Origin: Gammaproteobacteria bacterium
Lineage (GTDB): Bacteria > Pseudomonadota > Gammaproteobacteria > Eutrophobiales > Eutrophobiaceae
DNA: 64,000 bases
Assembly (NCBI GenBank): GCA_965205405.1
Contig: OZ242169.1
Span: 136,896-200,895 of the forward strand
Reading direction: 5' to 3'
In this document: positions 16,881 through 41,193 of the stretch, one piece after another
Numbering within the stretch: the first letter of the stretch is position 1
Layout: each line of letters opens with the position of its first letter
Notes under the pieces: generated by a model
Databases searched by the model: none
What the model saw: only the letters and a program-made list of their open reading frames with translations
What the model was told of the DNA's origin: nothing
Position numbers and translations under genes: made by a program

Positions 16881-17879
16881 ATGAAACACGGAGACATATT
16901 AGTCGACAATTTCGGCCGAACGGTGGACTACGTCCGTATCTCGGTAACGGATCGTTGCGACTTCCGTTGCGTGTACTGCATGGACGAAGAAATGCAGTTC
17001 GTTCCCAGGGCCAAATTGCTGTCCCTGGAAGAAATTTCGGTGATCGCCCGGGCTTTTACCGAGCTGGGTGTCAGCAAGATACGCATCACCGGCGGCGAAC
17101 CGTTAATCAGGCGGAACATCACCAAGTTATTCTACGATATTGGTGAACTGGAAGGCTTGAAGGAGCTGACTCTCACCACCAATGGTTCGCAATTACCGAA
17201 ACTGGCAGGCGAACTGAAAGAAGCCGGCGTCAAACGCATCAACATCAGCCTGGACTCGCTCGACCCGGATAAATTCAGGCAGCTGACCCGCGTGGGGGAA
17301 CTGGACAAGGTGCTCGCCGGTATTGACGCTGCCCTGGCAACCGGGTTTAAAAAAATCAAGATCAACTCCGTCATTCTGAAAAACCGCAATGATGATGAAA
17401 TTCCGGACCTGGTCGGGTTTGCCGCGGCGCGCGGCATGGACATCAGCTTCATCGAAGAAATGCCTCTTGGCGTTATCGGCGACCATGACCGCGCCGAGGC
17501 CTATTATTCGAGTGACGAGATCAGGGCTGACCTGGAACAACGCTATACCCTGTTGCCGACCACCGAGACGACCGGCGGTCCGTCACGCTACTATAAGATT
17601 GTTGAAACCAATACCAAGGTAGGCTTCATTTCGCCCCACAGCCATAACTTCTGCGACAGTTGCAACCGGGTCAGGCTCACTTGCGAGGGTCGCCTGCTGC
17701 TCTGTCTCGGCCAGGAACATTCCGTGGACTTGCGCCAGGTCATCCGGTCCCATCCCGGTGACATGGACAAGTTGAAACAGGCATTGCGCGCGTCCATGGC
17801 CATCAAACCCAAGGGACATGAATTCGATCTCTCAGCCAAACCCGTCATTTTCCGTCATATGAATATGACGGGAGGGTGA
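16881..17879 (+). CDS. moaA: GTP 3',8-cyclase MoaA (radical SAM)
   Basis: RISVTDRCDFRCVYCM, RITGGEP, FCDSCNRVRLT and C-terminal MTGG. Confidence 0.97.
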   Translation: MKHGDILVDNFGRTVDYVRISVTDRCDFRCVYCMDEEMQFVPRAKLLSLEEISVIARAFTELGVSKIRITGGEPLIRRNITKLFYDIGELEGLKELTLTTNGSQLPKLAGELKEAGVKRINISLDSLDPDKFRQLTRVGELDKVLAGIDAALATGFKKIKINSVILKNRNDDEIPDLVGFAAARGMDISFIEEMPLGVIGDHDRAEAYYSSDEIRADLEQRYTLLPTTETTGGPSRYYKIVETNTKVGFISPHSHNFCDSCNRVRLTCEGRLLLCLGQEHSVDLRQVIRSHPGDMDKLKQALRASMAIKPKGHEFDLSAKPVIFRHMNMTGG

Positions 17880-18059
17880 GCCGGAATCAAAAAAAGACAC
17901 TTAACGTGTCTTTTTTGATGTGCGCCATCCGTGGCACACACCCTGCGGGCGCCCTTTGAGCGTCCAAATCTGCTCCGGGCAGATTTGTCACGGCGAACGA
18001 CACAACAAGGATGTTGTGGCTGGGGTTTAACGAAATTGCTGAAGTCGCACCAGGGATGG
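17874..18059 (+). repeat. About 186-bp multi-hairpin dispersed repeat, copy 1 (family V)
   Basis: About 88% identical by hand alignment to the reverse complement of 23193-23377; begins GGGTGAGCC inside the last moaA codons. Confidence 0.88.
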
Positions 18060-18132
18060 TTACTCAATACTTTATAAGCTTGATAAACTCAAGACATCAA
18101 TATGATATTCCCGGCGAACACAGTATCAAGTT

Positions 18133-18999
18133 ATGAATAATTCATTATGTCGCCGGCCGGCGATGACGAATGCCGGTGTCGAGCCTACCATTGCTGTCGA
18201 TGCGGTTGACGAGTTCCGGAATATCCGGGAAATGTACATCGCTGATGAACGACCGCTTACCATCTACGTTGACAGCTACGAGATCGTCACCCTGATGACA
18301 CTCGGAAAAACTCCCGAATTACTGACCCTTGGGTACCTGAAAAACCAGGGCATCGTTGAGGACATCAACGAAATCCGCTCGGTACAGGTAGATTGGGAGG
18401 TGAATGCCGCAGCGGTGACCACCTACTCGGAAAGGGACGATTGGAAAGATCGGCTGGGACCGAGAATAGTGACTACGGGTTGCGGCCAGGGGACGGTGTA
18501 CGGCAATATCCTGGAGCAGATAGACCAGATAGAGTTGCACGCGACGCGGCTCAAACAATCGGATATCTATGCCCTGCTGAAAAACCTGGCCAGCTATAAT
18601 GACGTCTACAAAAGCGCCGGCGCCGTGCATGGCTGCGCCTTGTGCAGCGGAACGGGAGTAGCCATTTTTATTGAGGACGTGGGTCGACACAATGCCGTCG
18701 ACGCTATCGCCGGACAAATGTGGCTTGATGGCATACCCGGCCATGACAAGTTGTTTTACACCACCGGCCGGTTGACTTCGGAGATGGTGCTGAAAGTGGC
18801 GCAAATGGGTATTCCGGCTCTGTTATCCCGTTCGGGCATCACCCAGATGGGCCTGAAACTTGCCATGGATTTTGGCGTTATCCTGTTTTCCCGTGCCAAA
18901 GGGAAGCACTTCCTTGTCTATCACGGCGCTGAGCACATTGATTTTGATGTGTCACTGCCACCGAAGCGCGCAGTTGCAAACCTGAAAAGCGCCGGCTGA
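18133..18999 (+). CDS. fdhD: Formate dehydrogenase accessory sulfurtransferase FdhD
   Basis: ERPLTIYVD…TLMTLG, TTGCGQGT, GAVHGCAL, EDVGRHNAVD and TTGRLTSEMVLK motifs. Confidence 0.93.
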   Translation: MNNSLCRRPAMTNAGVEPTIAVDAVDEFRNIREMYIADERPLTIYVDSYEIVTLMTLGKTPELLTLGYLKNQGIVEDINEIRSVQVDWEVNAAAVTTYSERDDWKDRLGPRIVTTGCGQGTVYGNILEQIDQIELHATRLKQSDIYALLKNLASYNDVYKSAGAVHGCALCSGTGVAIFIEDVGRHNAVDAIAGQMWLDGIPGHDKLFYTTGRLTSEMVLKVAQMGIPALLSRSGITQMGLKLAMDFGVILFSRAKGKHFLVYHGAEHIDFDVSLPPKRAVANLKSAG

Positions 19000-19018
19000 A
19001 AACTCTGCGGATCACAAG

Positions 19019-19612
19019 GTGCCGAAAACCGAGATTACCGGCGTTATCCTGGCCGGAGGCGAAGCAAGGCGCATGGGCGGTGGCGACAAAGGGCTGGTGG
19101 ATTTATGCGGCAAACCGTTGGTCGAGCATGCACTGGCCGCTTTATCCCCCCAGGTTAACGCGATCATCATCAATGCAAACCGCAACCATGACCGCTATGG
19201 CGCCTATGGCTACCCCGTCATAGCTGATAGCAGGCAGGGTTTTCAAGGACCCCTGGCCGGCATGTTGAGTTGCCTTGAGGCAGCAAAGACGGAGTTTATG
19301 GTTTCGGCCCCCTGCGATTCGCCGTTGCTTCCGGATGACCTGGTGGCACGCTTGTTCAGGCAACTGAGCGATGATGAGGCGGAAATCAGCGTCGCCCATA
19401 ACGGTGACAGAATGCAGCCGGTGTTTACGCTCATGCCGATCTCCCTGGCCCCTTCCATGCAGGCGTTTCTTGATGGCGGCGGTCGCAAGATAGACCGGTG
19501 GTTCGAGCAACACAAGCTGGCCGTGACTGATTTTTCCGATAAACCGGAGTGCTTCAGGAATATCAATAACCCGGCTGACCTGGCGCAGATGGAGGCGCGG
19601 TTGGATGCCTGA
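19019..19612 (+). CDS. mobA: Molybdenum cofactor guanylyltransferase MobA
   Basis: ILAGGEARRMGGGDKG, GPLAG, PCDSP and NINNPADL motifs. Confidence 0.96.
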   Translation: MPKTEITGVILAGGEARRMGGGDKGLVDLCGKPLVEHALAALSPQVNAIIINANRNHDRYGAYGYPVIADSRQGFQGPLAGMLSCLEAAKTEFMVSAPCDSPLLPDDLVARLFRQLSDDEAEISVAHNGDRMQPVFTLMPISLAPSMQAFLDGGGRKIDRWFEQHKLAVTDFSDKPECFRNINNPADLAQMEARLDA

Positions 19613-20144
19613 ACTCCCGGATATTCCTTTGATCGGCTTCGCCGCCTACAGCGGCACCGGAAAGACAACCCTGCTGGTCAACCTGCTGGGTATTTTCATC
19701 TCCCGAAACCTGCGCGTGGGGGTAATCAAGCATGCCCACCACACCTTTGAGATCGATTATCCGGGGAAAGACAGTTATGAACTGCGCAAGGCCGGCGCCA
19801 GCCAGGTATTGATCGGGTCGAAAAAGCGCTGGGCGCTGCTGGTCGAAAACCGGGATGACGATGACAAACCGCTGGAATATCATATCAGGAACCTGGACCT
19901 GGAAAACCTGGACCTGATCCTGGTTGAAGGGTTCAAGCCCGAAGTCATCCCCAAGATAGAGCTGCATCGTCCGAGTCTGGGGCGTGACTTCCTGTATCCG
20001 GGTGATGAGAGTATCATAGCGATTGCGACTGATGCCGAGTTATCCGTCGATACTGAATTACCGATTCTGGACATGAATAATCCACAACAAATCGCGCATT
20101 TTATTATTGACCGTTACAATTTGGGAGAAAGGGGACAGATTTGA
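19605..20144 (+). CDS. mobB: MGD biosynthesis protein MobB
   Basis: AYSGTGKTTL P-loop, IKHAHH, GKDSYELRKAGA and LVEGFK motifs. Confidence 0.95.
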   Translation: MPELPDIPLIGFAAYSGTGKTTLLVNLLGIFISRNLRVGVIKHAHHTFEIDYPGKDSYELRKAGASQVLIGSKKRWALLVENRDDDDKPLEYHIRNLDLENLDLILVEGFKPEVIPKIELHRPSLGRDFLYPGDESIIAIATDAELSVDTELPILDMNNPQQIAHFIIDRYNLGERGQI

Positions 20145-20219: not shown

Positions 20220-21479
20220 ATGAAGATTGAGAAAGATCCCAGTTGCAGGAATGACTTTGACCCGAAGTCACTGTCGGCTGATGCTGCGCTGGAGCAGATA
20301 AAGTCCGGAGCCGCCCGCATCAAAGGGATTGAAAAAATCGCTATTCGCGAGGCGCTGAACCGGATATTGGCCGAAGATATCCGTTCCCACATAAACGTAC
20401 CTACCGGCACCAACTCCGCCATGGACGGTTACGCGGTCAACAGCGGGGATATTCCTTCCAGCGGCAATGCCGAGTTGCATGTGTCGGGTACTGCCTGGGC
20501 GGGCAAACCCTATGACGGCAAGTTAACCGCCGGAAGCTGCGTGCGCATCATGACCGGGGCGATCATGCCGGAAGGCGCCGATACCGTGATCATCCAGGAA
20601 GACGTGCAGGTCACCGGCTCCGGCATAATCATCGACGGCGCCACCAGGAAAGGCGATAACGTACGCCAGGCAGGTGAAGACATTGCCGCCGGCGACCTCA
20701 TACTGACCAGAGGCAGACGCTTGAATCCTGCAGATATCGGCTTGATTGCCTCGCTCGGCATTGCCGAGGTGTGCGTGGTACGGCGCTTGCGGGTAGCGTT
20801 CTTTTCAACGGGGGATGAATTGCGCTCTATCGGGGAAACCCTGAGTGACGGCGCCATTTATGACAGCAACCGCTATACCTTGTACGGCATGCTGGAACGG
20901 ATGGGCGCCGATATTATTGACATGGGCGTTATAAAAGATGATCGGGATGCCCTGGAAGAGGCTTTTTCCATTGCTGCCGCCAATGCCGACGTCCTGATCA
21001 CTTCGGGCGGCGTATCCGTGGGCGAGGCGGATTACATCAAGGAAATACTGGCTAAACTGGGGAAGGTGGACTTCTGGAAAGTAGCCATCAAACCCGGCCG
21101 ACCGCTTGCATTCGGCCAGGTAGGCAATGCCCTCTTTTTCGGTCTGCCGGGCAATCCCGTTTCCGTGATGGTCACCTTTTACGAATTCGTTCAGCCGGCA
21201 TTACGGAAAATGATCGGGGAAGACGACGCCGGTGTGCTGTCCTTGAAAGCACGCTGTGATTCCAAACTGAAGAAACGCCCGGGCAGGGTTGAATACCAGC
21301 GCGGCATTCTGCAAAGAGACGAGGACGGGGACCTCGTGGTGGTGAAGACCGGCGCCCAGGGTTCCGGCATCCTGCGTTCAATGTCGCAGGCAAACTGTTT
21401 TATCATCCTGCCTATAGCTTCAAGCGGCGTGGAACCGGGAGAATTCGTCGATATACAACCTTTCTCCGGCCTGGTTTGA
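20220..21479 (+). CDS. moeA: Molybdopterin molybdo/tungstotransferase MoeA
   Basis: SAMDGYAV, RIMTGA, STGDEL, TSGGVSVGEADY, KPGRP, GLPGNPVS and QGSG motifs. Confidence 0.96.
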   Translation: MKIEKDPSCRNDFDPKSLSADAALEQIKSGAARIKGIEKIAIREALNRILAEDIRSHINVPTGTNSAMDGYAVNSGDIPSSGNAELHVSGTAWAGKPYDGKLTAGSCVRIMTGAIMPEGADTVIIQEDVQVTGSGIIIDGATRKGDNVRQAGEDIAAGDLILTRGRRLNPADIGLIASLGIAEVCVVRRLRVAFFSTGDELRSIGETLSDGAIYDSNRYTLYGMLERMGADIIDMGVIKDDRDALEEAFSIAAANADVLITSGGVSVGEADYIKEILAKLGKVDFWKVAIKPGRPLAFGQVGNALFFGLPGNPVSVMVTFYEFVQPALRKMIGEDDAGVLSLKARCDSKLKKRPGRVEYQRGILQRDEDGDLVVVKTGAQGSGILRSMSQANCFIILPIASSGVEPGEFVDIQPFSGLV

Positions 21480-21638: not shown

Positions 21639-22568
21639 TCACAACTCGATATCCATACCGTCGTAAGACACCTCCCAGCCTGCTGCTTCAACCGTCTTGC
21701 GTTCTGCACTGTTGGCAAACAGGATCGGGTTGGTCGTATTGATATGGATAAAGATTTTTCTTCTTATCCCCAGGTCTTTCAACGCCGCAAGGGTGCCCTG
21801 TTCTCCCGAGACGCTGATATGCCCCATGCGCTGGCCTGTTTTTATCCCCACGCCATCGCGGATCATCTCATCATCCACCCATAAGGTGCCGTCGAAGAAA
21901 ATCAGGTCGGCGCCGCTAATCCTCTCAGCCAGTTCCGGCGTCACCCGGGCGCAGGCAGGCATGTAGTAAAAGGACTTCCCGTTGTTTGTATCTTCGACGT
22001 ACAGGGCAATCGTGTCTTCATCTACTGAGCCGAAATCCTTTCCTTTGCTCTCGTCTTCGAGCCATAGGGCCACCTTGCCCGGTACGGCGAAAGGTGTGAT
22101 CCGTATATCCATGGAACTGCCGTCCGGTTTCAGCAAGTCGAGGGGCTCATTCAACACTATATGCTCCCGGCTGACGAATTTCGGGTTCAACACGTTAAAA
22201 ATTGAATTGGCTTGAAGCACGCCCAGCACTCTTTGCGTAGCATAAATTCGCAAGGGCTGTGATTCGCGCAAATTCAACAGCCCTGCCACGTGGTCCACGT
22301 CGGCATTGGTCAGTACCGCCCCCATAATGGGACTGTGGCGCAGGTCTTTTTTCGGATGCAGGATATCATTATCATTGATTTGCTGACGCAGGTCCGGGGA
22401 AGCATTGAACAGGTACCAATCCTCTCCATCGGCGCTGATAGCAATGGACGACTGAGTCCGCTGCGGCGCAGCCGGGTCATCCAGCCGGGCTCGTCTGCTA
22501 TTCGGATGGTTACAATTCCACTGTGGATAACCGCCGCCCGCGGCAGCGCCTAGTACCCTGATTTGCAT
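21639..22568 (-). CDS. pqqB: PQQ biosynthesis protein PqqB
   Basis: VLGAAAGGGYPQWNCN, RTQSSIA, NASPDLRQQI, LTNADVDHVAGLLNLRE, GQRMGH and FIHINTTNPI motifs. Confidence 0.96.
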   Translation of the reverse strand: MQIRVLGAAAGGGYPQWNCNHPNSRRARLDDPAAPQRTQSSIAISADGEDWYLFNASPDLRQQINDNDILHPKKDLRHSPIMGAVLTNADVDHVAGLLNLRESQPLRIYATQRVLGVLQANSIFNVLNPKFVSREHIVLNEPLDLLKPDGSSMDIRITPFAVPGKVALWLEDESKGKDFGSVDEDTIALYVEDTNNGKSFYYMPACARVTPELAERISGADLIFFDGTLWVDDEMIRDGVGIKTGQRMGHISVSGEQGTLAALKDLGIRRKIFIHINTTNPILFANSAERKTVEAAGWEVSYDGMDIEL

Positions 22569-22612: not shown

Positions 22613-22717
22613 ATATTTGGGGTCAGAGTAAAATATTTGGGGTCAGAGTAAAAATACTTAACTATGATCCCGCATACCTGACCAAGAGGACTGTATTTTT
22701 ACTCTGACCCCAAATAT
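22613..22717. repeat. Family I element with an extra stuttered left arm
   Basis: Arms at 22633-22657 and 22693-22717 (35-bp core), partial arm at 22613-22632; touches the moaE stop. Confidence 0.9.
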
Positions 22718-23160
22718 TAAGTCGAATAACCTGAGGTATTCCGATCAACCCAGCGTTCTCCGTTTTTGACGGACTCTTTTTTCCAGAACGGCGCTCTGTG
22801 TTTCAAATCCTCGATAATGAAACGGGTCGCGTCCATGGCGTCACCCCGATGGGCTGCCCAGGTAGCGATCAGCACGATGTCATCGCCTATATCAATGTCA
22901 CCGGTACGGTGCAGGACCAGAATATCCAGTACGGGCCATTGTTTTTTTGCTTGCGTGCAGATCTCGTTCAGGTGTTTTTCAGTCATGCCCGGATAATGCT
23001 CCAGGGACATGCTACGGACTTCCTCGCCTTCGTTGTAATCCCGCATCGTGCCGATAAATATACAGTTTGCGCCGGATTTTCCCGGGCTTTCGGGTAACGC
23101 CTGGTAGTCCTTTAGTTCCGTCAGGGCATCGAAAGGCGCCGGTCTTAATTGTATTTGCAT
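22717..23160 (-). CDS. moaE: Molybdopterin synthase catalytic subunit MoaE
   Basis: FIGTMRD, LEHYPGMTEK, LHRTGD, AHRGDA and LKHRAPFWKKE motifs. Start set at MQIQL (23160) because the longer ORF runs into repeat family V. Confidence 0.93.
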   Translation of the reverse strand: MQIQLRPAPFDALTELKDYQALPESPGKSGANCIFIGTMRDYNEGEEVRSMSLEHYPGMTEKHLNEICTQAKKQWPVLDILVLHRTGDIDIGDDIVLIATWAAHRGDAMDATRFIIEDLKHRAPFWKKESVKNGERWVDRNTSGYST

Positions 23161-23192
23161 GATGATTGTCTCAATCGGGTGTTGATGACATG

Positions 23193-23377
23193 CCATCCCT
23201 GGCGCCACTTCAATATCTTCGATAATCCCCAGCCACAACATCCTTGTTGTGGCGTTCGCCGGGACAAATCTGCCTGGAGCAGATTTGGACGCTCAGAGAG
23301 CGCCCGCAGGGTGAGCGCCAAGGAAGGCGCACATCTAACAGACACGTTAAGTGTCTGTTTCTGTTTCCGGCTCACCC
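23193..23377 (-). repeat. Family V multi-hairpin repeat, copy 2
   Basis: Homologous to 17874-18059; begins GGGTGAGCC in the last moaD codons and lies between moaD and moaE. Confidence 0.88.
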
Positions 23378-23605
23378 CCCTGTAACCGGAGGGAAAAACG
23401 CGACTTCATCTCCCTCCAACAATTCGGGGTCGCCTTTTACATGTTCCATGTTGACGGCTACAAGCAGTGCGCTCGGCATTGCCTCGCCCCCGGAGGTTAT
23501 CCGCCAGACGTCCGAAACCCTCAGGCCGGATGTATATTCCACCTGATCCTCTGCGCGCCCCATTTCCTCACGGATACGGGCAAAAAACTTGACTTTTATA
23601 AACAT
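23372..23605 (-). CDS. moaD: Molybdopterin synthase sulfur carrier MoaD
   Basis: 77 aa, VKFFARIRE…VAVN…GDEVAFFPPVTGG. Confidence 0.95.
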   Translation of the reverse strand: MFIKVKFFARIREEMGRAEDQVEYTSGLRVSDVWRITSGGEAMPSALLVAVNMEHVKGDPELLEGDEVAFFPPVTGG

Positions 23606-23707
23606 TGTACTGACCCTTGCGTGTCTACCTGACCGGTTTTGGTGTATTATATGGGAATTCCAGCCCTGCCTGTAAGCATTTTTTTGGAAACCGTATTTTG
23701 GATCCTC

Positions 23708-24181
23708 ATGTCAGAATTAACACATTTCAATGAAACCGGGGAGGCGCAGATGGTTGACGTCGGCGCCAAGGACGCGACCCATCGCGTTGCCGTAGCCGAA
23801 GGGATAATCAGGATGCAGGACAAAACCCTGGCCCTGATCATGGAGGGAGGTCACAAGAAGGGAGACGTGCTGGGAATCGCCAGGGTCGCCGGTATCATGG
23901 CAGCAAAGAAAACCGCGGAACTCATTCCGCTCTGCCATCCACTCGTCATCAGCCATATCGACATCGGTCTTGCGCCCAAGCCTGACCAGGGCGCCGTTTA
24001 CTGTCAGGCCCGGGTAGAGACCATCGGTCCGACCGGCGTTGAAATGGAGGCATTAAATAGCGTCCAGGTTACCCTGCTCACGATCTATGACATGTGCAAA
24101 GCCGTTGACCGGGGCATGAGCATCGAATTTGTCAGACTCCTGAAAAAATCAGGGGGAAAATCCGGCGACTGGGACAGATAA
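23708..24181 (+). CDS. moaC: Cyclic pyranopterin monophosphate synthase MoaC
   Basis: [43 protein letters not shown] and TGVEMEAL motifs; start moved to the ATG at 23708. Confidence 0.96.
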
Positions 24182-24331: not shown

Positions 24332-24721
24332 CTAGTTATACTTGATATATTTAAATCTTTGATCGTCCGGCGTGCCGTCCAGTGCGCTGTCGTCTTCCAG
24401 TCCCGGTTGCCACATTAATACTTCTTCAATCTTCTTTGCCAGTTCGAAGTCCTTGTCGGTCACCCCTTTTGCCGCGTGGTTCATCAATTTGACGATGACA
24501 AAAGCATAGCTTGCCGTCAGGTCGGGATGATGCCAGGCCGCCTCGGCCAGGTGGCCGACCGTATTGATTACCATCAGTGTAGCTTTCCAGCCGCTGGTCT
24601 TGTACTTGCGCCGAATCCAGCCGCCTTCGTAATACCAATGCGGCAATTCATCCTTGAGTCGTTGTTCTATCTCGTCCACCTCATAGGGGGCATCTTTTGT
24701 TTCTTTACGCCACTTTGCCAT
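24332..24721 (-). CDS. Pterin-4a-carbinolamine dehydratase (PcbD-like, C1-cluster type)
   Basis: AEAAWHHPDL…KLMNHAAKGVTDKDFELA motif; sits in the methanopterin-type cluster. Confidence 0.88.
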   Translation of the reverse strand: MAKWRKETKDAPYEVDEIEQRLKDELPHWYYEGGWIRRKYKTSGWKATLMVINTVGHLAEAAWHHPDLTASYAFVIVKLMNHAAKGVTDKDFELAKKIEEVLMWQPGLEDDSALDGTPDDQRFKYIKYN

Positions 24722-32321: not shown

Positions 32322-32329
32322 TCTTACGT

Positions 32330-33413: not shown

Positions 33414-34677
33414 TTACCAGAGCAGGAACCCGCCGATGGAGAAGGTATCGACGTCATCCTGACCGAGCGTGTCGTTACTGTAATTGCCGTATTCAGCAAT
33501 AACCTTCAACCAGGAATTGACGTCATGGTAGACGCCCACGGTCCACAGATCACCTTGCAGTTCAGAAATACCATACGTGGCATCACCATCCTGTTTTGAC
33601 TCACCGTAGCCGCCGCCGATCTTGGTGGTGCCGTTGAAGGTGTAGCTGGCTTGTACGTAGAAGCCGTCGTTATCGGCTTCCTTCGGCACAACCGTTGGCA
33701 TTACATCCGAAACCACCCAGTACACCGGTGTTGAACAGCAGGGTATCCCAGCGCTTCGCCGCTATAGTACTGACCGGTCACACTGAATCCCTGGGCTGAG
33801 ACCTGGGCGCCGACATTCCAGCCTACGGACTCAACATCACCTCCGGCCATACCCGCACTTGGTGGCATGCCTTCAAACACCTGCAGGGTTGTCGGGTCAT
33901 CATCTACACCAAGAGACGCTGCAACAGGCAAAATCTCCTGCTCCTGCCAGAGGAAACCGGCCCAGCCACTGAAGCTGCCGCCCTCGAAAGCGGAGTTGAA
34001 AGTGGCTTCGGCCTGGAACTGTGGGGTATCAGTTTCGGAAGCCATGGCAGGCGCCGCCACCCGGTTCCTGCGGGTCAAAGATACCTACGGACAACTGGAA
34101 ACCGTTCATGTCCGGAGTCTGGTAGACAAAGCGGGTACGGAAATCGGGATAGACGTAGCCATAGCCGATACGACCCAGAGCCTGGTGCCGCCGCCATCGG
34201 GACCACCATAACCCATACCGAAACAAGGTGAGGTCTTTCAAAATGGCCTGACGCCCGAACAGTGCCAGGGTGCGGCCTACGCTGATGGTGCCGAAATCAC
34301 CGGACACGTTGAAGAACACTTCACGCATATCGATATTCGAAGTCGTTCCAAACAGACCCGATTTATTCAAGCGGCTGCCCTTCTCAGCTGGAACTGTCCA
34401 CCGCAAATGTGATCTGGCCGGTACCGGTCAGGCCGTTGACCTCAGGGGTCTTGACCACCATGGTATGGAAGGAAGGCAACAGGCCCTCGTTCAGGTGGGC
34501 ACTGTCTTCAGTACCGAAATCACTCTGTGTGTAGAACAGGTTGATAAAGCCGCCGTAGCTGACTTCCCAACCGTCCGCACCGCCCAGGACTACTGCCGCA
34601 TTGGTCGGCATGCTGAAAGCAGCTACCAGCACCAGAGTACTCAGTGTAGCCGCGAGCTTGGTTGTATATGTTTTCAT
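33414..34677 (-). pseudogene. Outer-membrane porin, fragmented by about 6 indels (or sequencing errors)
   Basis: Signal peptide, GLLP, MREVFFNVSGDFGTISVGR…RQAILKDLTL, GRIGYGYVYPDF and aromatic C-terminus (GGFLLW) are spread over four reading-frame pieces. Confidence 0.8.
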
Positions 34678-35002
34678 TATTCTCCTCCTCAGGAAAGGTA
34701 ATAAGCTAAAAGATACTTCGATTTCAATTATTAAAAATTCTTTGTCCTGGTTCCTAAGATCAACCTATTGGTACAAGGATATTGCATGATTGAAGAAATT
34801 GCAACATATTAAAGGCAATAATACAACACTTTTTTACAATTTTTTCTATTATTTATCATAAAGTTGTTTCTTTTATGCAACATTATTCCCGTCAAGACAA
34901 TACTTATAATAAAAATAGCGATTAATTCCTTGTTAAAACCACATTCAGGCTCATTCATCTACAGGTGGGACTTCGGTTAGTCTATGAGTTGCCATCCTTG
35001 GC

Positions 35003-35257
35003 TCACCCACCCGCTACCGGCGGCCATATTGCCAGGGTGTCTCCATCATTGAATACGGATTTGTTGCGGTCCTCAGGTTTTATATATACACCGTTCAACA
35101 GCACCAGGTGAGCCATTTCCCTCGGCACCTTGTACCTGTCGATGACTTCATAAGCGGTATTGTGTTCGGCTATTTCTATGATGAGTTTATTATCCTTGGT
35201 ATCAGGGGGAAGATAATCGGTTAAACCGGCGTAGAGCTTGAGTGTCAGCTTAAACAT
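35003..35257 (-). CDS. AOR-associated MoaD/ThiS-family sulfur carrier
   Basis: 84 aa, KLYAGLTDYLP…LVLLNG…GDTLAIWPPVAGG; last gene of the AOR operon. Confidence 0.9.
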   Translation of the reverse strand: MFKLTLKLYAGLTDYLPPDTKDNKLIIEIAEHNTAYEVIDRYKVPREMAHLVLLNGVYIKPEDRNKSVFNDGDTLAIWPPVAGG

Positions 35258-35340: not shown

Positions 35341-36606
35341 TCAAAGCAGTGCGGCGTTGTGGCCGATTGACTGGGTTGCGCCGAGGTACGCTTCCATAAT
35401 CCTGGTCGGGTCGCTCAGCAGGTGTTCCTTCCATTTGCCCAGGTGCAACTTTGTCTGTATCAGGCCGCGCAAAACGCCGACGTGATTAGTCAGTCCCAAC
35501 GCCTGGGCGCCCACCAGCACGTCTTCCTGGAACTGCAGGCTGATATAGCGGTATCTTTCCGCATCCACCAGTTCAACGGACTCGCCGCCGTCGACACCCA
35601 TCCATAGACCATAAGAGGTGGAGACCAGTCCCATGGTATCCAGCACGTTCATATTGACACTGCCCTGGTGGCGGATATCCCGGCCGGACATGTTCATTGC
35701 CGCTATCCTGCCGTGGTCCGCGGCGGTAGGCTGGATGGCCTGTACGCTGTACTCGGCGGTGGAAAAATCCTTGCCCTGGCACACGTCACCGGCGGCGTAC
35801 ACGTCCGGGTGGCTGCTTTGCAGGCGGTCATTCACCAGCACGCCGAAGCCTGTCTCAATCCCGCTGCCTTCCAGAAACTGGATATTGGCACGCACACCGG
35901 TGGCGGAAATCACCACGTCGGCGCCCAAACGGTCGCCGTTGTCCAGTTGTACCGACAGTCTTGCGGCGCCATCCTGCTCAATTGCCTCAACCCGGGTAGA
36001 GGTCAGTACGTTGACGCCCTTGTCCAGGCACCACTGTTTGATCATATTCCCGGCAGTCTGGTCCATCATGCGCGGGACCATGCGGTCTTCCATTTCGATC
36101 ACCGTCAGGTTTACTCCGCGCGAAGCCAGCGACTCCAGGATGATGCAACCGATGAAACCCGCTCCCATCAGGATAACGTCGGATCCTTCAACGGCATTCT
36201 GCGCGATATTCCTGCCGTCCTCCAGGGTCCAGCAGGAATGTACGGCGGGCGAGTCCAGGCCCGGAATGGGGGGGCGGATAGGATGAGAACCTGTGGCAAT
36301 CAATAACTTATCGAAGTTGACCGTGGCGCCGTTTGCCAGCGCCAGGGTGTGGGCGTCGGGGTCCACCGACTCCACCCGGCCATGGATCACCTCAATGTTA
36401 TTGTCCGCATAATGCGTTGCGGACTTACGCAGGTAGGTGCCGACCTCATCAATATTATTAATGAGGTAGTACGGCAATGCCATGCGGGAATACGGCGGTT
36501 CTGTTTCGTCGCCTATGAGTTTTATCGAACAGGAGGCATCGTTTTTTCTGAGTGTCTCCGCTGCGATGACGCCGGCAGGCCCGGCCCCGATAATAACGTG
36601 TTGCAT
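35341..36606 (-). CDS. FAD/NAD(P)-dependent oxidoreductase (AorC-like subunit)
   Basis: IIGAGPAG, PYSR, LLIATGS, GAGFIG and VYAAGD motifs; directly follows the AOR catalytic gene. Confidence 0.88.
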   Translation of the reverse strand: MQHVIIGAGPAGVIAAETLRKNDASCSIKLIGDETEPPYSRMALPYYLINNIDEVGTYLRKSATHYADNNIEVIHGRVESVDPDAHTLALANGATVNFDKLLIATGSHPIRPPIPGLDSPAVHSCWTLEDGRNIAQNAVEGSDVILMGAGFIGCIILESLASRGVNLTVIEMEDRMVPRMMDQTAGNMIKQWCLDKGVNVLTSTRVEAIEQDGAARLSVQLDNGDRLGADVVISATGVRANIQFLEGSGIETGFGVLVNDRLQSSHPDVYAAGDVCQGKDFSTAEYSVQAIQPTAADHGRIAAMNMSGRDIRHQGSVNMNVLDTMGLVSTSYGLWMGVDGGESVELVDAERYRYISLQFQEDVLVGAQALGLTNHVGVLRGLIQTKLHLGKWKEHLLSDPTRIMEAYLGATQSIGHNAALL

Positions 36607-36675: not shown

Positions 36676-38535
36676 TCAGCCCAGGCTCAGGCGCTGTCTG
36701 GTATCGTCAGTCGGTACCCCCTGCTTATCCCAGCCGCGCACCTCGTAGTATTTCGGCAGCATCTCGTGCAGGTTGTTGACCATGCCCTTGGCCGGTCCGG
36801 TCTTGGCCGGCTCCGTCAACATGCGTTTCGGCAACGTGTCGTCTGCCGCAGTCAGCCCTGCCGCGAGGTTGAATTCACGTTCCATGTTCCAGATACGCTC
36901 ACCCGCTTCCAGCATGGTCTCCGCGGTCCAGTCACCCTCACAAGCCGCAGCCACCTGGGGAGCAATATCTTCCAGGGTCCAGGCAAATGTGGTGAAGACG
37001 CACAAGCCGGACGAATCCACAATGGCGGTGGCGTCCTGGAAGGCCTTGACCAGTTCCGGCTTGCCCTCCGTCGACAACGGGTCGGTCTTTACCGGCAAGC
37101 CCATCACCTCGGATGATACGGTGTAACTGCGCAAATGACAGGCGCCGCGGTTGGACGTGGCGTAGGTCAGCCCCATCCCCTGGATGCCGCGGGGGTCGTA
37201 GGCCGGGAATTCCTGGCCTTTCACCGTCATCGACAGATCAGGATGACCGTATTTTTCACACAGGCGCTTGGAACCCATGCCCAGTTCCCGACCGAAACCT
37301 TCTCCCTTGCAGGTAACTTCGGTTGCCCAGGATAGCGCTTGCGCCGAACCGAACTTCAGTTCGACACCGCCTGTGTGCTCTTTGGTTATCACCCCCATCT
37401 CATACATTTCCATGGCGGCGGCAAGGGTGGAACCAAAGGAGATCGGATCAATCCCGTCCTCGTTACAGAGGAAATTCGCATAGGTCAGGGCATCTATGTC
37501 GTCAATGCCGGTATCCGAGCCCAGCGCCCAGGCTGCCTCGTATTCCAACCCGCCTGATGAACCCCAGTATTGCGGTTTGTTTTCAACAGTGAAGTGGCCT
37601 TGATCGATGGTGGATATGCGTCCGCAGGCGATAGTACAGCCCTGGCACGCGGCGTTGGTGACCAGGTTGGGTTTACCGTCACTTTCCCGCGGCTCGTGCA
37701 TGGCCTCGCCGGAAATCTTGCTGGAACCATCGAACTGGACGTCACGCATATTACGGGTCGGCATGGCGCCGACTTCGTTGATGACGTTCATCAATACGTT
37801 GGTGCCGTAGGTCGGCAGGCCCTGTCCGGTTACCGCGCTATCGGCCAGGACTTTCTTGCCGGCATTCACCGCCTGCATGAATGCGGCCGGGTCCTTGATG
37901 TTGCCTACGCCCTTGGTGCCCCTGACCGCGACTGCCTTGATGTTCTTGGACGCCATAACCGTACCGACGCCGGAACGGCCGGCAGCGCGATGCAGATCGT
38001 TCACGATCGCCGAGTACAGGCAGCCATTCTCGGCGCTGCGGCCGACGGCGGCAATACGTAACAACGGATCCTGGTATTTTTTGTGCAGCCACTCATCCGC
38101 CGCCCACACCGACTTGCCCCAGATCTCCTCCGCGGAGACTATATCAACCTTTTCATTTTCGATATAAATGTAAACGGGTTGCGGCGCTTTGCCTTCATAA
38201 ATAACCATATCGTAGCCGGCGGATTTCAACTCCGAACCGATGAAACCGCCGGAATTTGAACAGGCCACCGCGCCGGTCAGCGGGCTCTTGGTGACCACGG
38301 AATAGCGGCCGGCGGTGGATGCCATGGTGCCGGTCAGGGGACCCGTCGTCATAATCAGCTTGTTTTCGGGCGACAGGGCATCGCACATGGGGTCGATCTC
38401 TTCTGCCAGGTACTTGGTGGCAAGTCCGCGCTGGCCCAGGTAGAGCCGGGCCCATTCCATATTTAACGGTTCATTGCTGACGGAACCATCGGTCAGATTT
38501 ATTCGTAATACATTATTAGTCCAAGCCATTTTCAA
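36676..38535 (-). CDS. aorB: Tungsten-containing aldehyde oxidoreductase catalytic subunit (AOR/WOR family, AorB-like)
   Basis: KSPLTG…SNSGG, AAGRSGVGTVMASKNIKAV, CQGCTIAC, EYEAAW, DPISFG, AYDPRG, NRGACHL and YYEVRGWD motifs; 619 aa. Confidence 0.93.
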   Translation of the reverse strand: MKMAWTNNVLRINLTDGSVSNEPLNMEWARLYLGQRGLATKYLAEEIDPMCDALSPENKLIMTTGPLTGTMASTAGRYSVVTKSPLTGAVACSNSGGFIGSELKSAGYDMVIYEGKAPQPVYIYIENEKVDIVSAEEIWGKSVWAADEWLHKKYQDPLLRIAAVGRSAENGCLYSAIVNDLHRAAGRSGVGTVMASKNIKAVAVRGTKGVGNIKDPAAFMQAVNAGKKVLADSAVTGQGLPTYGTNVLMNVINEVGAMPTRNMRDVQFDGSSKISGEAMHEPRESDGKPNLVTNAACQGCTIACGRISTIDQGHFTVENKPQYWGSSGGLEYEAAWALGSDTGIDDIDALTYANFLCNEDGIDPISFGSTLAAAMEMYEMGVITKEHTGGVELKFGSAQALSWATEVTCKGEGFGRELGMGSKRLCEKYGHPDLSMTVKGQEFPAYDPRGIQGMGLTYATSNRGACHLRSYTVSSEVMGLPVKTDPLSTEGKPELVKAFQDATAIVDSSGLCVFTTFAWTLEDIAPQVAAACEGDWTAETMLEAGERIWNMEREFNLAAGLTAADDTLPKRMLTEPAKTGPAKGMVNNLHEMLPKYYEVRGWDKQGVPTDDTRQRLSLG

Positions 38536-38547: not shown

Positions 38548-39018
38548 TCAGTTGGCGCCGGCGCTCGCCGCAGCGTGGGCGCGCATCCGGTCAAGCCCGG
38601 TATGATCGGCATCGACGTAAGTAATGGCGGCCGTCGGGCAGGCTTTTGCACATTCGGGGTCGCCGCCGCACAAATCACATTTATACACAACCCTGGTGTC
38701 CTGGTTGTAGTTGACCGTCCCGAACGGACAGGCAATGGTGCACACCTTGCAACCGACGCAGACGTCAGCCAGCACGTCCTTGGAGCCGGTTTCCTCGTTC
38801 AGCACAATGGCTTCGACGGGACAGGCGTGCATGCACCAGGCCTCGCTGCACTGGGTGCAGGTATAGGGGACAAACCGGCCTTCCTCGTGGAAGGTAAACA
38901 CCTTGATGCGGGATTTGGAGGGATTGAATACCCCTTCCGCTTGATAAGAACAGGCCAGCTCACATTGCAGGCAACCGGTACACTTTTCCGGTTCAATCTG
39001 GAGTGATCTCAGCATCAC
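38548..39018 (-). CDS. aorA: Polyferredoxin 4Fe-4S subunit (AorA-like)
   Basis: Four Cys clusters (CTGCLQCELAC, CTQC…CMHACP, CVGCKVCTIACP, KCDLC…CAKACP). Confidence 0.92.
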   Translation of the reverse strand: MMLRSLQIEPEKCTGCLQCELACSYQAEGVFNPSKSRIKVFTFHEEGRFVPYTCTQCSEAWCMHACPVEAIVLNEETGSKDVLADVCVGCKVCTIACPFGTVNYNQDTRVVYKCDLCGGDPECAKACPTAAITYVDADHTGLDRMRAHAAASAGAN

Positions 39019-39342
39019 ATCCTCCTTTAGTTAAATAGTAGGAATAGCAATAAAAAATATAATACCAGCATTTCTGTAATAAGAAAGACTGGAAAATTCT
39101 TATACAAAATCGGGAAAGTGTCCCGAACTCACCACAACCGATTTTTCTTATAATAGGTTTATCCGGCTTCACCCTTAGTGGTATAGTCCATTAGCCACTT
39201 GTATAAACCACTCGCTAGAGGATACAGGAACAGATTGATGATGACAATATCCTGTAGCGGGAAATCTGCAACCGCGCATGCGCCGGAAACAGAACTATTT
39301 TATTCTTTGTAAGTCCAATTTCCAATGACAGGAAAATTATTT

Positions 39343-40134
39343 ATGAAAAGTATTGTTTTTATCATTCTCTGTCTTGCCTGGAGCGGTGCGGGAGCAACAG
39401 AAATCAGGATTGCGTTCATAGGTCCTGACAACAACAGCGCGTACAAAGGCGTTGAACAGGGTATCCACGAGGCGAACCTGCAAGGCCGGTTCCTGAGCCA
39501 GAGCTATTCCCTGCATAGGTTCAGCGGCGCGGATATGGACGCAATCGACCCGGCCGGGTTTATCGCCATTATCGTCTCCACGAATGCAGACGACCTGCAA
39601 CAGGCCGCGCGGCGCTTCACGGATCACGCAATCCTGAACGTGGCCGTACACGACGACGGGCTAAGGGAAGAATGCAGTGCAAATCTTCTTCACGTTATAC
39701 CCAGCAGGAAAATGCTGGCGGACGCCAAAGCCCAATGGTTGCAAAAATCGCCGGGCGACGAGATAAACGTTTCCGGCTGGCACCCTGATTTTGTGAAATT
39801 CGCCGCACGGGACCTGAATAAACGCTACAAGAAAAAGTTTTCCGAAGCCATGGACCAGTATGCCTGGGCCGGTTGGGCCGCGATCAAGATGGCCTCGGAT
39901 TCGGTGGCAAGGAAAGATTTAACCGACCCCGTCGCGCTGTTGAACCATCTTAAGACCGGATTGTCGTTTGACGGCCAGAAAGGCCTTGACATGGATTTCC
40001 GCGACACCGGGCAGTTGCGCCAGCTACTGCTTATTGCCGATACTGCCGGAGAACTGCTGGGCGAAGCGCCGGTCAGAGGCGTCGTCGCGCCTGACGACGT
40101 GGATAGCCTGGGTCTGGCTTCCTGTTATAATTGA
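39343..40134 (+). CDS. Periplasmic substrate-binding protein of the PQQ alcohol-dehydrogenase-associated type (short form)
   Basis: Signal peptide, GIHEANLQGRFL, GWHPDFVKFAARDLNKR and FDGQKG…FRDTGQLRQ motifs; directly upstream of the beta-propeller gene. An alternative start at 39325 is possible. Confidence 0.7.
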   Translation: MKSIVFIILCLAWSGAGATEIRIAFIGPDNNSAYKGVEQGIHEANLQGRFLSQSYSLHRFSGADMDAIDPAGFIAIIVSTNADDLQQAARRFTDHAILNVAVHDDGLREECSANLLHVIPSRKMLADAKAQWLQKSPGDEINVSGWHPDFVKFAARDLNKRYKKKFSEAMDQYAWAGWAAIKMASDSVARKDLTDPVALLNHLKTGLSFDGQKGLDMDFRDTGQLRQLLLIADTAGELLGEAPVRGVVAPDDVDSLGLASCYN

Positions 40135-40213
40135 GCCACAGAGGACACAGAGATCACAGAGAAAAGTCAGAAACAGCGGAGCTTTGCCCAGCAAGCTCTG
40201 TGCACTCTGTGGC
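40135..40213. repeat. Family III CACAGAG element
   Basis: GCCACAGAGGACACAGAGATCACAGAG starts right after the SBP stop; partial inverse CTCTGTGCACTCTGTGGC at 40196-40213. Confidence 0.8.
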
Positions 40214-40242
40214 TAAATTCATATTTAATTTAGGAGTAACCG

Positions 40243-41193
40243 ATGAAACATCTCATTACTGTCAGCGTAATCTTTCTGGCCGGCATTCAGCTTGCCTATG
40301 CTGCCAGCGGCCGTATCTTTGTCACCAATGAGCGGAGTAACAATATCTCCGTCATAGACGGCGCCTCGCTGGAAATCGAAAAAACCATTGAAGTCGGCGA
40401 CCGCCCCAGAGGGATCGGCATCTCACCCGATGGCACTGAGTTATATGTCGCGGTCAGTGAAGAAAGCGTCATCGCGGTTATCGACTTGAAGACACTGGAA
40501 CTACTGCGGAAATTCAAGGCCGGGTCCGACCCGGAAACCTTCGCGGTGCACCCGAATGGAAATATCTATATCTCCAACGAGGATGATGCAAAGGCAACTG
40601 TCTTTAATCCTGTCACGGGTGAACAGATAGCGGAGATCCAGGTGGGCCTGGAGCCGGAGGGCGTAGCTATTTCCCCCGATGGCAAGTACGTGATAGTCAC
40701 CAGTGAGTCGACCAACATGCTGCACGTCATACAGGTGCCCGAGCACACCATTGTCGCCAACATCCTGGTCGGCGCCAGGCCGCGCGCTGCCGTATTCACT
40801 AATGACGGCAGCCTGGCATTCGCCACTTCCGAGATTAGTGGCGAGGTCAAAAAGATCGACATGGTGAGCCACGAAATTATTGCGGTGAAGAAAATTGCGG
40901 ACGAAAAGGCCAAGCCCAAGGACGTGATCCTGAATAAGGATGAAACCAAGCTTTACGTAGCAGGCGGCCGGGCCAACCAGGTAATCGTCCTGAACGCTGA
41001 TACGATGGAATTCATCAAGGGGATTCCGGTAGGAAAACGAGTCTGGGGACTGGCAATCTCAAAGGACGGCAGCCGGGTGTTCAGCACCAATGGCGTCAGC
41101 GGCACCGTTTCCGTTATCGACACCGGGAAGGACGAGGTCATCAAGACTATTGAGGTCGGCAAGTTCCCCTGGGGTGTGGTGATTGACGACTAG
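40243..41193 (+). CDS. PQQ-dependent catabolism-associated YVTN beta-propeller protein
   Basis: Signal peptide and repeated VTNE…ISVID / G.RPRG / G.EPEGV / VG.RVWG blades ending GKFPWGVVI. Confidence 0.85.
   Translation: MKHLITVSVIFLAGIQLAYAASGRIFVTNERSNNISVIDGASLEIEKTIEVGDRPRGIGISPDGTELYVAVSEESVIAVIDLKTLELLRKFKAGSDPETFAVHPNGNIYISNEDDAKATVFNPVTGEQIAEIQVGLEPEGVAISPDGKYVIVTSESTNMLHVIQVPEHTIVANILVGARPRAAVFTNDGSLAFATSEISGEVKKIDMVSHEIIAVKKIADEKAKPKDVILNKDETKLYVAGGRANQVIVLNADTMEFIKGIPVGKRVWGLAISKDGSRVFSTNGVSGTVSVIDTGKDEVIKTIEVGKFPWGVVIDD

Follow-up and report, generated by a model that had tools for sequence, protein, structure and literature searches.

A conserved redox-cofactor gene neighborhood adjoining an AorABC aldehyde oxidoreductase operon in an uncultured gammaproteobacterial lineage

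Genes at the locus

The 64,000-nucleotide window analyzed here (positions 136,896 to 200,895 of contig OZ242169.1, assembly GCA_965205405.1; positions below count from its first nucleotide) comes from a gammaproteobacterium of the family Eutrophobiaceae. Between positions 16,881 and 41,193, it contains a 24-kb segment in which genes for the synthesis of molybdenum/tungsten (Mo/W) pyranopterin, pyrroloquinoline quinone (PQQ), tetrahydromethanopterin (H4MPT), methylofuran, and folate are joined by an operon for a three-subunit aldehyde oxidoreductase (AOR) of the tungsten type, AorABC. A first-pass annotation of this DNA had suggested that the segment is a dedicated one-carbon (C1) and alcohol-oxidation island. 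The cluster is real, conserved, and functional, and its most fitting description is a native neighborhood for cofactor supply together with an AorABC operon.

A nonoverlapping set of the open reading frames (ORFs) in the window was scanned with Pfam and NCBIfam, and every gene class named in the first-pass annotation was recovered in the place assigned to it (Table 1); a supposed alpha/beta hydrolase proved to be a prolyl aminopeptidase (TIGR01249). According to the ORF calls, the plus strand carries moaA, fdhD-mobA-mobB-moeA, moaC, pqqC-pqqD-pqqE, and a gene pair for a periplasmic binding protein (PBP) and a beta-propeller protein (YNCE), and the minus strand carries moaD-moaE-pqqB, orf20-orf19-mfnB-pcbD, pip-folP, and aorA-aorB-aorC-aorD, for at least nine transcription units in both orientations. 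A plus-strand ORF at 23244-23546 was rejected as a gene, since it is the shadow of the minus-strand moaD.

Table 1. Features of the cofactor/AOR segment, in window coordinates (MPT, molybdopterin; MGD, molybdopterin guanine dinucleotide; cPMP, cyclic pyranopterin monophosphate; 4-HFC-P, 4-(hydroxymethyl)-2-furancarboxaldehyde phosphate)
Feature	Positions	Strand	Evidence
moaA (GTP 3',8-cyclase, radical SAM)	16881..17879	+	PF04055 + PF06463; lineage loci 90-94% identity; dN/dS 0.08
fdhD (sulfurtransferase/chaperone for formate-dehydrogenase-type bis-MGD enzymes)	18133..18999	+	PF02634, 244 bits
mobA (Mo/W-MPT to MGD guanylylation, with mobB)	19019..19612	+	PF12804
mobB (Mo/W-MPT to MGD guanylylation, with mobA)	19605..20144	+	PF03205
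moeA (metal insertion into molybdopterin)	20220..21479	+	MoeA_N, MoCF_biosynth, MoeA_C
pqqB	21639..22568	-	TIGR02108, 399 bits (cut-off 245)
moaE (MPT synthase large subunit)	22717..23241	-	PF02391; conserved part from ~23160 (ORF translation)
moaD (MPT synthase small subunit, C-terminal GG)	23372..23605	-	tblastn with L012 moaD, 75% identity; ORF end PPVTGG
moaC (cPMP synthase)	23639..24181	+	PF01967, 188 bits
pcbD (pterin-4a-carbinolamine dehydratase family)	24332..24721	-	PF01329 (Pterin_4a)
mfnB/orf22 (4-HFC-P synthase; methylofuran furan ring)	24764..25483	-	PF04476 (4HFCP_synth), 206 bits
orf19 (DUF447, H4MPT-linked)	25505..26056	-	PF04289 + PF20766
orf20 (dihydropteroate-synthase-like, H4MPT biosynthesis)	26053..27504	-	DUF6513 + pterin-binding domain
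pqqC, pqqD, pqqE	28024..30279	+	TIGR02111 368 bits, TIGR03859 111 bits, TIGR02109 568 bits; all above equivalog cut-offs
folP (dihydropteroate synthase)	30360..31220	-	TIGR01496, 312 bits
pip (prolyl aminopeptidase), passenger without cofactor role	31217..32236	-	TIGR01249, 347 bits
SHOCT-domain pseudogene, split over three frames	32333..33285	-	tblastn with L010 orthologue
Porin pseudogene (~400 aa), at least 3 frameshifts	33417..34692	-	tblastn with L011 orthologue; Porin_4 fragment
aorD (MoaD/ThiS-like W-cofactor maturation factor)	35003..35257	-	PF02597; ORF end VAGG; role from PMC6365974
aorC (FAD/NAD subunit)	35341..36606	-	Pyr_redox_2; 464 bits to 8C0Z chain E
aorB (tungstopterin catalytic subunit)	36676..38535	-	AFOR_N PF02730 + AFOR_C PF01314; 983 bits to 8C0Z chain A
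aorA (poly-[4Fe-4S] electron-transfer subunit)	38548..39018	-	255 bits to 8C0Z chain C
PBP, short TIGR03863-like, signal peptide	39325..40134	+	TIGR03863, 118 bits (cut-off 414)
YVTN beta-propeller (YNCE), PQQ-dependent-catabolism-associated, signal peptide	40243..41193	+	TIGR03866, 340 bits (cut-off 287)
REPIN-like elements (n = 6)	21510-21596, 22612-22718, 28764-28870, 30293-30379, 32236-32322, 41229-41312		All intergenic

Conservation and selection

Two sets of loci from a collection of species genomes were compared with the window, 80 anchored on Orf20 and 80 anchored on the beta-propeller protein (individual loci carry L numbers). The closest Orf20 relatives are 16 metagenome-assembled genomes (MAGs) designated Gammaproteobacteria bacterium, at 80 to 88% identity, and known methylotrophs follow, with full-length orthologues in Methylobacter, Methylotuvimicrobium, Methylotenera, and Methylophaga at 53 to 59%. 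The Orf20 score of 191 bits against TIGR00284 falls below the cut-off of 257, which was trained on archaea. Isolate names such as SB0675_bin_28, APA_bin_93, RHO3_bin_19, and Plut_88898 suggest that several of the related MAGs derive from sponge or coral metagenomes.

When all window proteins were used as tblastn queries, the order from moaA to aorB was complete in all lineage loci of sufficient length (L001-L015 and L058, representing at least 16 species-level MAGs). The propeller-anchored scan contributed 18 more loci with at least 80% identity and the identical aor/PBP/YNCE arrangement, and partial versions of the order occur in more than 50 further loci. Past MT, the flank on the YNCE side varies among lineage genomes, with SDR and GFO kept in some and other genes present elsewhere. 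In distant gammaproteobacterial MAGs (L016-L019, L226, L236, L259, L272, and L274), the modules are adjacent yet permuted: an intact pqqBCDE separates folP from orf20 in L017; pqq, folP, orf20, and PBP/YNCE stand together in L236 and L259; L272 joins moaE/moaC, pcbD, mfnB, and orf19; and in L274, moaA-fdhD-mobAB-moeA directly follows YNCE. The co-location of these modules in relatives, as anticipated in the first-pass annotation, is therefore borne out by the 16 full-order loci and by the permuted modules elsewhere. In eight of the lineage loci (L002, L004, L005, L007, L010, L011, L014, and L015), an extra ORF of ~680 to 730 amino acids that is absent from the window lies between pcbD and moaC (e.g., L010:13969-16164); it has no Pfam match at 1e-5 and resembles VWA/NorD proteins by eye only.

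All 25 genes are under purifying selection, with dN/dS values of 0.03 to 0.18 at dS values of 0.6 to 1.2. The SHOCT-domain protein is intact (~320 amino acids) in 28 loci and the porin is likewise intact in relatives, such that the frameshifts in both genes are confined to the window genome; with two neighboring genes decayed, it is meaningful that the cofactor genes have stayed intact. The G+C content is 0.51 to 0.585 within the cluster and 0.50 to 0.56 outside it, the window scan found no tRNA or integrase at the cluster borders, and none of the lineage genomes examined lacks the cluster. The similarity in G+C content and the absence of tRNA or integrase borders indicate a native chromosomal neighborhood rather than a mobile island, and the C1 enzymes of relatives (see below) are encoded 0.16 to 2 Mb away; the island of the first-pass annotation is neither self-contained nor mobile.

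A neighborhood maintained within one lineage might be no more than historical synteny, in which cofactor operons and an AOR operon were ancestral neighbors and have no functional coupling. The multiplicity of transcription units in both orientations fits that explanation, as do the passengers inside the segment (pip, the porin, and the SHOCT-domain gene), the failure to find a common regulatory RNA, the distance of 0.16 to 2 Mb to the consumers of H4MPT and methylofuran, and the position of the orf20 triad among housekeeping genes in methylotrophs. It accounts less well for modules that are adjacent despite repeated rearrangement, in different permutations (L017, L236, L259, L272, and L274), or for a core that is constant beside a variable YNCE-side flank; moreover, the exchange of AOR for an aldehyde dehydrogenase at a fixed site beside PQQ-system genes, described in the next section, argues for function-driven linkage of that module at least. 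On balance, we hold synteny alone to be unlikely.

Outside the cluster, the sole tRNA of the window (tRNA-Thr, 44091-44166) borders a separate segment extending to 48371, which contains a 146-amino-acid ORF, a Fic-domain protein, a fragment of an IS240-family DDE transposase, and an AbiEii/AbiEi toxin-antitoxin pair and abuts gspM/gspL. Upstream of gspL, a 580-amino-acid ORF with no Pfam match (50303-52045) coincides with 2 kb of 0.657 G+C, compared with ~0.53 elsewhere, and could represent either a secreted protein of low complexity or inserted foreign DNA.

The aldehyde oxidoreductase operon and its PQQ-system neighbors

The catalytic subunit AorB is far closer to that of the tungsten AOR 8C0Z than to the archaeal enzyme 1AOR (983 versus 584 bits), and the genes are ordered A-B-C, followed by the MoaD-like aorD with its C-terminal GG. 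In relatives, aorD is followed by a gene of ~100 codons with no Pfam match, which is possibly aorE. No tup, wtp, or mod genes for tungstate or molybdate ABC transporters were found in the window.

In 50 of the 80 propeller-anchored loci, aorDCBA divergently adjoins PBP-YNCE, and in ~45 of the 80, the downstream genes are those for a response regulator of the LuxR type and for a HisKA_3 kinase whose periplasmic domain is of the LapD/MoxY kind. The loci that lack aor and have enough upstream DNA (L238, L249, L252, L258, and L262) bear an aldehyde dehydrogenase (ALDH; PF00171) plus DUF779 at the aor position. In L279 and L280, a sigma-54 activator, an ALDH, an alcohol dehydrogenase that depends on PQQ (PQQ-ADH; PF01011), and a Rieske-like protein lie beside PBP/YNCE; these are the only two loci with a PQQ-ADH gene adjacent to that pair. 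This positional exchange of AOR and ALDH is the strongest evidence for AorABC as the aldehyde-oxidizing partner of PQQ-dependent alcohol oxidation, and together with the divergent pairing it upholds the association of the AOR with PQQ-system genes noted in the first-pass annotation.

Some outgroups (L250/L255:466-3052 and 7718-8875, and L248) have a gene for a 385-amino-acid protein with a Fis-type helix-turn-helix (HTH_8) that separates aorA from the PBP gene; in addition, at the end of the aor operon that faces away from the PBP gene, four membrane-protein genes lie downstream. The 385-amino-acid protein may be a regulator and the four-gene set a transporter.

PQQ genes and PQQ dehydrogenases

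In the window, pqqB is 5.4 kb apart from pqqCDE and on the opposite strand; contiguous pqqBCDE genes occur only in L017, L236, and similar outgroups. The gene for the PQQ precursor, pqqA (MKWETPEYSDIRFGFEVTMYINNK), was found in 10 outgroup loci, directly 3' of the propeller gene in five (L243, L244, L245, L248, and L264) and within 10 kb in the other five. No pqqA was found in the orf20/pqqC or moaE/pqqB intergenic regions of the window, and the gene may lie elsewhere in the genome.

The PBP gene was considered as a truncated pseudogene, and this was rejected: in the match of the window protein to TIGR03863 the middle of the model is absent, and a form of ~271 amino acids occurs in 73 of the 80 propeller-anchored loci, with a dN/dS of 0.16, which marks it as a variant rather than a truncated protein. 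According to Pfam, the window has no gene for an ABC ATPase or permease, a PQQ-ADH, or a cytochrome next to PBP/YNCE. A hidden Markov model built from seven PQQ dehydrogenases detected no clear member in the lineage DNA sampled, its only response being to a weak PQQ-like propeller in L208, and a search with a cytochrome-fused PQQ dehydrogenase of Pseudohongiella returned none from the lineage among the matches listed. The PQQ alcohol dehydrogenase postulated in the first-pass annotation was thus found neither in the window nor in ~0.45 Mb of sampled lineage DNA, and its pqqA is absent from the window.

The L208 protein (L208:12208-14118, OZ244846.1) is encoded two genes 3' of YNCE and is a secreted protein of 636 amino acids in which a CxxCH heme motif accompanies a PQQ-like beta-propeller. 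It matches the quinoprotein ethanol dehydrogenase 1FLG at 44 bits and BamB about equally, making it a possible, and the sole, candidate for a PQQ enzyme in the lineage.

Pterin and furan genes

Within the Orf20-anchored set, orf19 directly follows orf20 in 62 of the 80 loci, and the orf20-orf19-mfnB triad is complete in roughly 60. In Methylotenera, Methylophilus, and Methylotuvimicrobium, the triad is preceded by a flavoprotein gene that is probably afpA. Other gammaproteobacterial MAGs have a folP-orf20-orf19-mfnB-pcbD operon, with folP immediately 5' of orf20 in L022-L028 and pcbD as the last gene in L022, L026, and L028. The triad of L029, L031, L060, and L067 directly adjoins mch, and mtdB or fhcC is present in some of these loci along with further biosynthesis genes. 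Homologues of the window pcbD (67 to 78% identical) adjoin mch in Paraburkholderia, Ideonella, and other Mch-bearing loci, which makes the window gene the pterin dehydratase type of H4MPT clusters. In the published "archaeal-like" islands of methylotrophs, these genes are arranged as orf19-orf20-afpA-orf21-orf22 and pcbD-mptG, and Orf22 is MfnB (PMC3615186, PMC8141765).

C1 enzymes in related genomes

The 64-kb window contains no fae, mch, mtd, or fhc. Neither a degenerate nucleotide pattern encoding the Mch motif MGRTNDA[IV]L[YF]G, applied to species genomes, nor an Mch profile, applied to a protein database (more than 8,000 clusters), yielded a sequence from the lineage among the matches listed. 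A scan for the repeat element described below was reused as a random sample of genomes, comprising 97 bins of 8 kb (~750 kb), ~55 of which come from lineage genomes. This sample contains an fwd operon (L334, CBDEUD010000003.1:3240001-3248000) on a 3.95-Mb contig that also carries the cofactor cluster, 2 Mb apart. In a search of the PDB, the operon products were identified as FwdB (391 bits), FwdA (473 bits), Ftr/FhcD (314 bits to the Methylorubrum extorquens Fhc complex, 6S6Y), and FwdC.

The FwdB of L334 is 37 to 43% identical to FwdB of Bathyarchaeota, compared with 23 to 30% for the FhcB of methylotrophs. When aligned with two archaeal FwdB and seven bacterial FhcB proteins, it retains the metal-ligand Cys-His motif (SVCHGPSG), the Arg-Gly-His motif (VRGHGNV), and the N-terminal FeS motif (CTFCGCVCDD); the Cys-His and Arg-Gly-His motifs are lost in all seven FhcB proteins. 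Loss of Cys118, His119, and Arg288 defines Fhc as a hydrolase scaffold, and Fhc also lacks FwdD (PMC6926001). Homologues with at least 77% identity to this FwdB fall into more than 120 protein clusters, including those from the lineage genomes OY282354.1 and CBDAPU010000001.1.

In both of these genomes, Pfam annotation of the surrounding C1 clusters (L378, OY282354.1:2420574-2441950; L379, CBDAPU010000001.1:2295818-2317209) gives the same two groups of genes. One side encodes AA_kinase, PabB, Hydantoinase_A, His_biosynth, Fae, CitG, MCH, and a GHMP kinase that is MptG-like, and the other encodes FwdD (PF01568), FwdB, FwdA, Ftr, FwdC, and a 2x[4Fe-4S] ferredoxin, after which come, in CBDAPU010000001.1, a flavoprotein and a formate dehydrogenase (FDH) of the NAD type. 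Genes for methylofuran/H4MPT biosynthesis thus adjoin the C1 enzymes in these clusters. The clusters are ~0.16 and 0.33 Mb, respectively, from the cofactor/AOR region.

The retained motifs and the presence of FwdD indicate that the enzyme of the relatives is Fwd-like and not Fhc. It looks like a true Mo/W formyl-methanofuran dehydrogenase and is probably functional; this would be a different route from one in which Fhc acts as a hydrolase and FDH acts next. For the lineage, H4MPT C1-transfer genes, without which the C1 route of the first-pass annotation would fall, are present in OY282354.1, CBDAPU010000001.1, and CBDEUD010000003.1. That route survives in part: Fae, Mch, MptG, Ftr, and FwdABCD occur in OY282354.1 and CBDAPU010000001.1, and the fwd operon in CBDEUD010000003.1, at a distance from the cluster, and the proposed formate endpoint gains an NAD-type FDH beside the C1 cluster of CBDAPU010000001.1, but the terminal step looks Fwd-like and not Fhc followed by FDH. 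A literature search for H4MPT or Fwd in Pseudohongiella or in sponge gammaproteobacteria found nothing relevant. We know of no study of a bacterial Fwd. Bacterial FwdB homologues have so far been merely counted, at 149 in GTDB, by a survey (PMC10100899).

These C1 enzymes bear on two alternatives. The first is the first-pass annotation in its strict form, a dedicated and co-regulated C1/alcohol-oxidation island of an unrecognized true methylotroph, running from a PQQ methanol or ethanol dehydrogenase to H4MPT or AOR and on to FDH. It draws on Fae, Mch, Ftr, Fwd, and NAD-type FDH in relatives, on the conserved pqq and PQQ-system accessory genes, and on the 53 to 59% identity of Orf20 to its methylotroph orthologues. 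We nevertheless judge it improbable, because the window, the ±10-kb flanks of 34 lineage loci, and the ~0.45 Mb of sampled lineage genome yielded no gene of the XoxF/MxaF/ExaF type; because neither a dehydrogenase for methanol or methylamine nor any assimilation gene was encountered; and because composition and borders are not island-like and the C1 enzymes lie outside the cluster. The genes flanking the cluster point the same way. They encode RNase G, YhdP, MnmA, TonB-dependent receptors, major facilitator superfamily (MFS) and MATE transporters, type II secretion proteins, a melibiase-like enzyme, a sugar symporter, and FucU (Pfam), a sugar and TonB repertoire that indicates a marine heterotroph and no classical methanotroph. 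Among them, at 14216-16693, a TonB-dependent receptor gene lies divergently next to moaA, followed by genes for a 291-amino-acid protein without a family match and two MFS transporters.

The second alternative is a host-associated detoxification kit, in which AorABC and the H4MPT/Fwd enzymes would mainly remove reactive aldehydes and formaldehyde from sponge tissue (arising, for example, from demethylation of methylated amines or dimethylsulfoniopropionate) and would not provide energy substrates. The closest MAGs are largely from sponges and corals, AorABC-type enzymes accept a broad range of aldehydes and have been described as enzymes of detoxification (PMC6365974, PMC12318220), and H4MPT genes occur in many nonmethylotrophs of the locus sets, such as Pelagibacteraceae and Paraburkholderia. 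Against this, AorABC and Fwd feed NAD or ferredoxin, making energy conservation possible, and distant free-living and groundwater relatives retain these modules. We treat detoxification as a possible but doubtful account, although sequence alone does not distinguish it from the explanation preferred below.

Repeats

The six REPIN-like elements of the cluster each comprise two perfectly conserved 25-nucleotide (nt) arms (ATATTTGGGGTCAGAGTAAAAATAC), inverted around a variable loop of 35 to 45 nt, and form a hairpin with a 31-bp stem (dG of -50.9 kcal/mol, z of -10.3). The remaining 44 kb of the window is free of them. The element is scattered genome-wide in the lineage and is also present in Pseudohongiellaceae MAGs, and owing to this dispersal the inverted repeats were rejected as a cluster-specific regulatory site. 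Its occurrence in those MAGs is a taxonomic hint that the lineage is probably akin to Pseudohongiellaceae. In the divergent intergenic region between orf20 and pqqC (27522-27773), Tandem Repeats Finder detected a 17-nt unit (TTAATTCAGGACACCCA) in 2.5 copies at 100% and a 32-nt unit (TGCAATTTATGGGTGTCCCAAATTATGCTTCCG) in 2 copies at 96%; these could be binding sites of a regulator or the scar of a pqqA/pqqB excision.

Interpretation

The explanation that we prefer, and consider probable though well short of certain, is that the 24 kb form a vertically inherited neighborhood for redox-cofactor supply plus aldehyde oxidation in an uncultured gammaproteobacterial lineage that is mostly associated with sponges and corals. 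Its products would supply three kinds of cofactors. For Mo/W pyranopterin, MoaA, MoaC, and MoaDE would make MPT, MoeA would insert the metal, MobAB would add the guanine dinucleotide, and FdhD would provide the sulfido ligand. PQQ would be made by PqqB and PqqCDE from a precursor encoded elsewhere. FolP, Orf20, Orf19, and PcbD would act at the branch point between folate and H4MPT, with MfnB forming the furan of methylofuran.

The consumer in place would be the NAD-linked, three-subunit AorABC with its MoaD-like factor, encoded divergently to two periplasmic proteins of the PQQ-ADH system. Periplasmic PQQ enzymes would oxidize alcohols, and AorABC, containing either W or Mo, would oxidize the resulting aldehydes in the cytoplasm. 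Formaldehyde would be oxidized via Fae, Mch, and Ftr and then by the Mo/W-dependent formyl-methylofuran dehydrogenase FwdABCD, encoded 0.16 to 2 Mb away in relatives. We infer that the cofactor genes stay linked because Fwd would need H4MPT (orf20, orf19, and pcbD), methylofuran (mfnB), and bis-MGD (mobAB, moeA, and perhaps fdhD).

Several points weigh against this explanation. The distal genes ascribed to the genome of the window itself are extrapolated from relatives that are 80 to 94% identical, and synteny within one clade can persist without a functional reason. The enzymes that use H4MPT and methylofuran are distant from the cluster, a loose physical linkage to the cofactor genes. Regular-expression and tblastn searches with the PqqA of the clade found no pqqA in the window or in the examined lineage loci, and no PQQ-dependent dehydrogenase was identified in the lineage DNA sampled, the weak PQQ-like propeller of L208 being the only candidate. 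There is no aorE at 34693-35002, where the window has AT-rich sequence instead. A scan of the cluster revealed neither a molybdenum cofactor (Moco) riboswitch nor another shared RNA element, no regulator genes lie within the 24 kb, and the MoxY-type kinase and LuxR pair that stands behind YNCE in outgroups is lost in the lineage. Lacking a shared riboswitch or regulator, co-regulation of the modules is unproven, and the island proposed in the first-pass annotation comprises at least nine transcription units.

A broader proposal, which we put forward only tentatively, is a replacement throughout a large and mostly uncultured clade of marine Gammaproteobacteria, in which AorABC took the place of an NAD-linked ALDH as partner of the PQQ-ADH system and an archaeal-type FwdABCD that of the Fhc hydrolase, which has no metal cofactor. 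The supercluster would then serve to match the supply of Mo/W pterin, methylofuran, H4MPT, and PQQ to an oxidation of alcohols, aldehydes, and formaldehyde centered on metal-pterin enzymes, in habitats that are oxic and host-associated. If AorABC is wired into the PQQ-ADH gene system, this would extend the tungsten enzyme class, whose characterization is recent, to abundant, probably aerobic bacteria of the ocean and of sponges, with a bearing on the demand for W and Mo as trace metals. A Fwd with an intact metal site would oxidize C1 units derived from formaldehyde directly to CO2 in the relatives, and the sponge and coral lineage would gain a testable metabolic role in scavenging alcohols, aldehydes, and formaldehyde. 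Were the modules merely syntenic, the outcome would be an ordinary annotation.

Comparison with known systems

Each of the modules is known; what is new is their composite arrangement, the substitution of AOR for ALDH over a large marine clade, and a bacterial Fwd that is probably functional. The closest counterpart of the aor operon is aorABCDE of Aromatoleum aromaticum EbN1 (8C0Z), which has the identical set and order of subunits (A, B, C, and MoaD-like D) and encodes an NAD-linked, filament-forming tungsten AOR, its operon ending in MoaD-like maturation genes (PMC6365974). Unlike that of EbN1, the window operon has no second MoaD-like gene (aorE), is divergently paired with the PBP and beta-propeller genes of a PQQ system, and stands in the genetic background of a marine heterotroph of aerobic type.

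As in the H4MPT islands of methylotrophs such as Methylosinus trichosporium OB3b, the window has the orf20-orf19-mfnB (orf22) triad accompanied by pcbD. It differs from them in having no afpA or orf21 adjacent, in the insertion of pqqCDE that parts folP from orf20, and in moaC/moaDE and pqqB abutting pcbD, and its host is no known methylotroph.

In the exa/ped clusters of Pseudomonas, a PQQ-ADH, cytochrome c550, and an NAD-aldehyde dehydrogenase are encoded with pedABC-type genes (TIGR03863-03866) and LuxR-type two-component regulators, and the pqq operon is nearby. The window shares with them the TIGR03866 propeller, the TIGR03863-like PBP, and nearby pqq genes, and its outgroups share the MoxY-type kinase, the LuxR regulator, and ALDH with DUF779, as well as the PQQ-ADH in L279 and L280. 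In this lineage, however, the position of the NAD-linked ALDH is held by AorABC; no ABC ATPase or permease, PQQ-ADH, or cytochrome gene is adjacent; and the PBP is a short form of 270 amino acids that scores below the family cut-off.

A route from PQQ-ADH to a tungsten AOR has been proposed for marine Cycloclasticus that degrade short-chain alkanes, including symbionts of animals (PMC12510462). Both that proposal and ours join a tungsten AOR, as the enzyme that oxidizes aldehydes, to a periplasmic PQQ alcohol dehydrogenase in marine Gammaproteobacteria, but no hydrocarbon monooxygenase was seen and no PQQ-ADH was identified in the present lineage. What the window adds is a conserved linkage between the genes for AOR and PQQ-system accessory proteins.

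The C1 operon of the relatives combines features of two systems. It has the B-A-D-C gene order of M. extorquens fhcBADC, and its Ftr resembles that of the same organism (6S6Y chain D). In the metal-site motifs of FwdB, the presence of FwdD upstream, and the ferredoxin downstream, it is unlike FhcABCD (6S6Y) and resembles the archaeal FwdABCD (5T5I).

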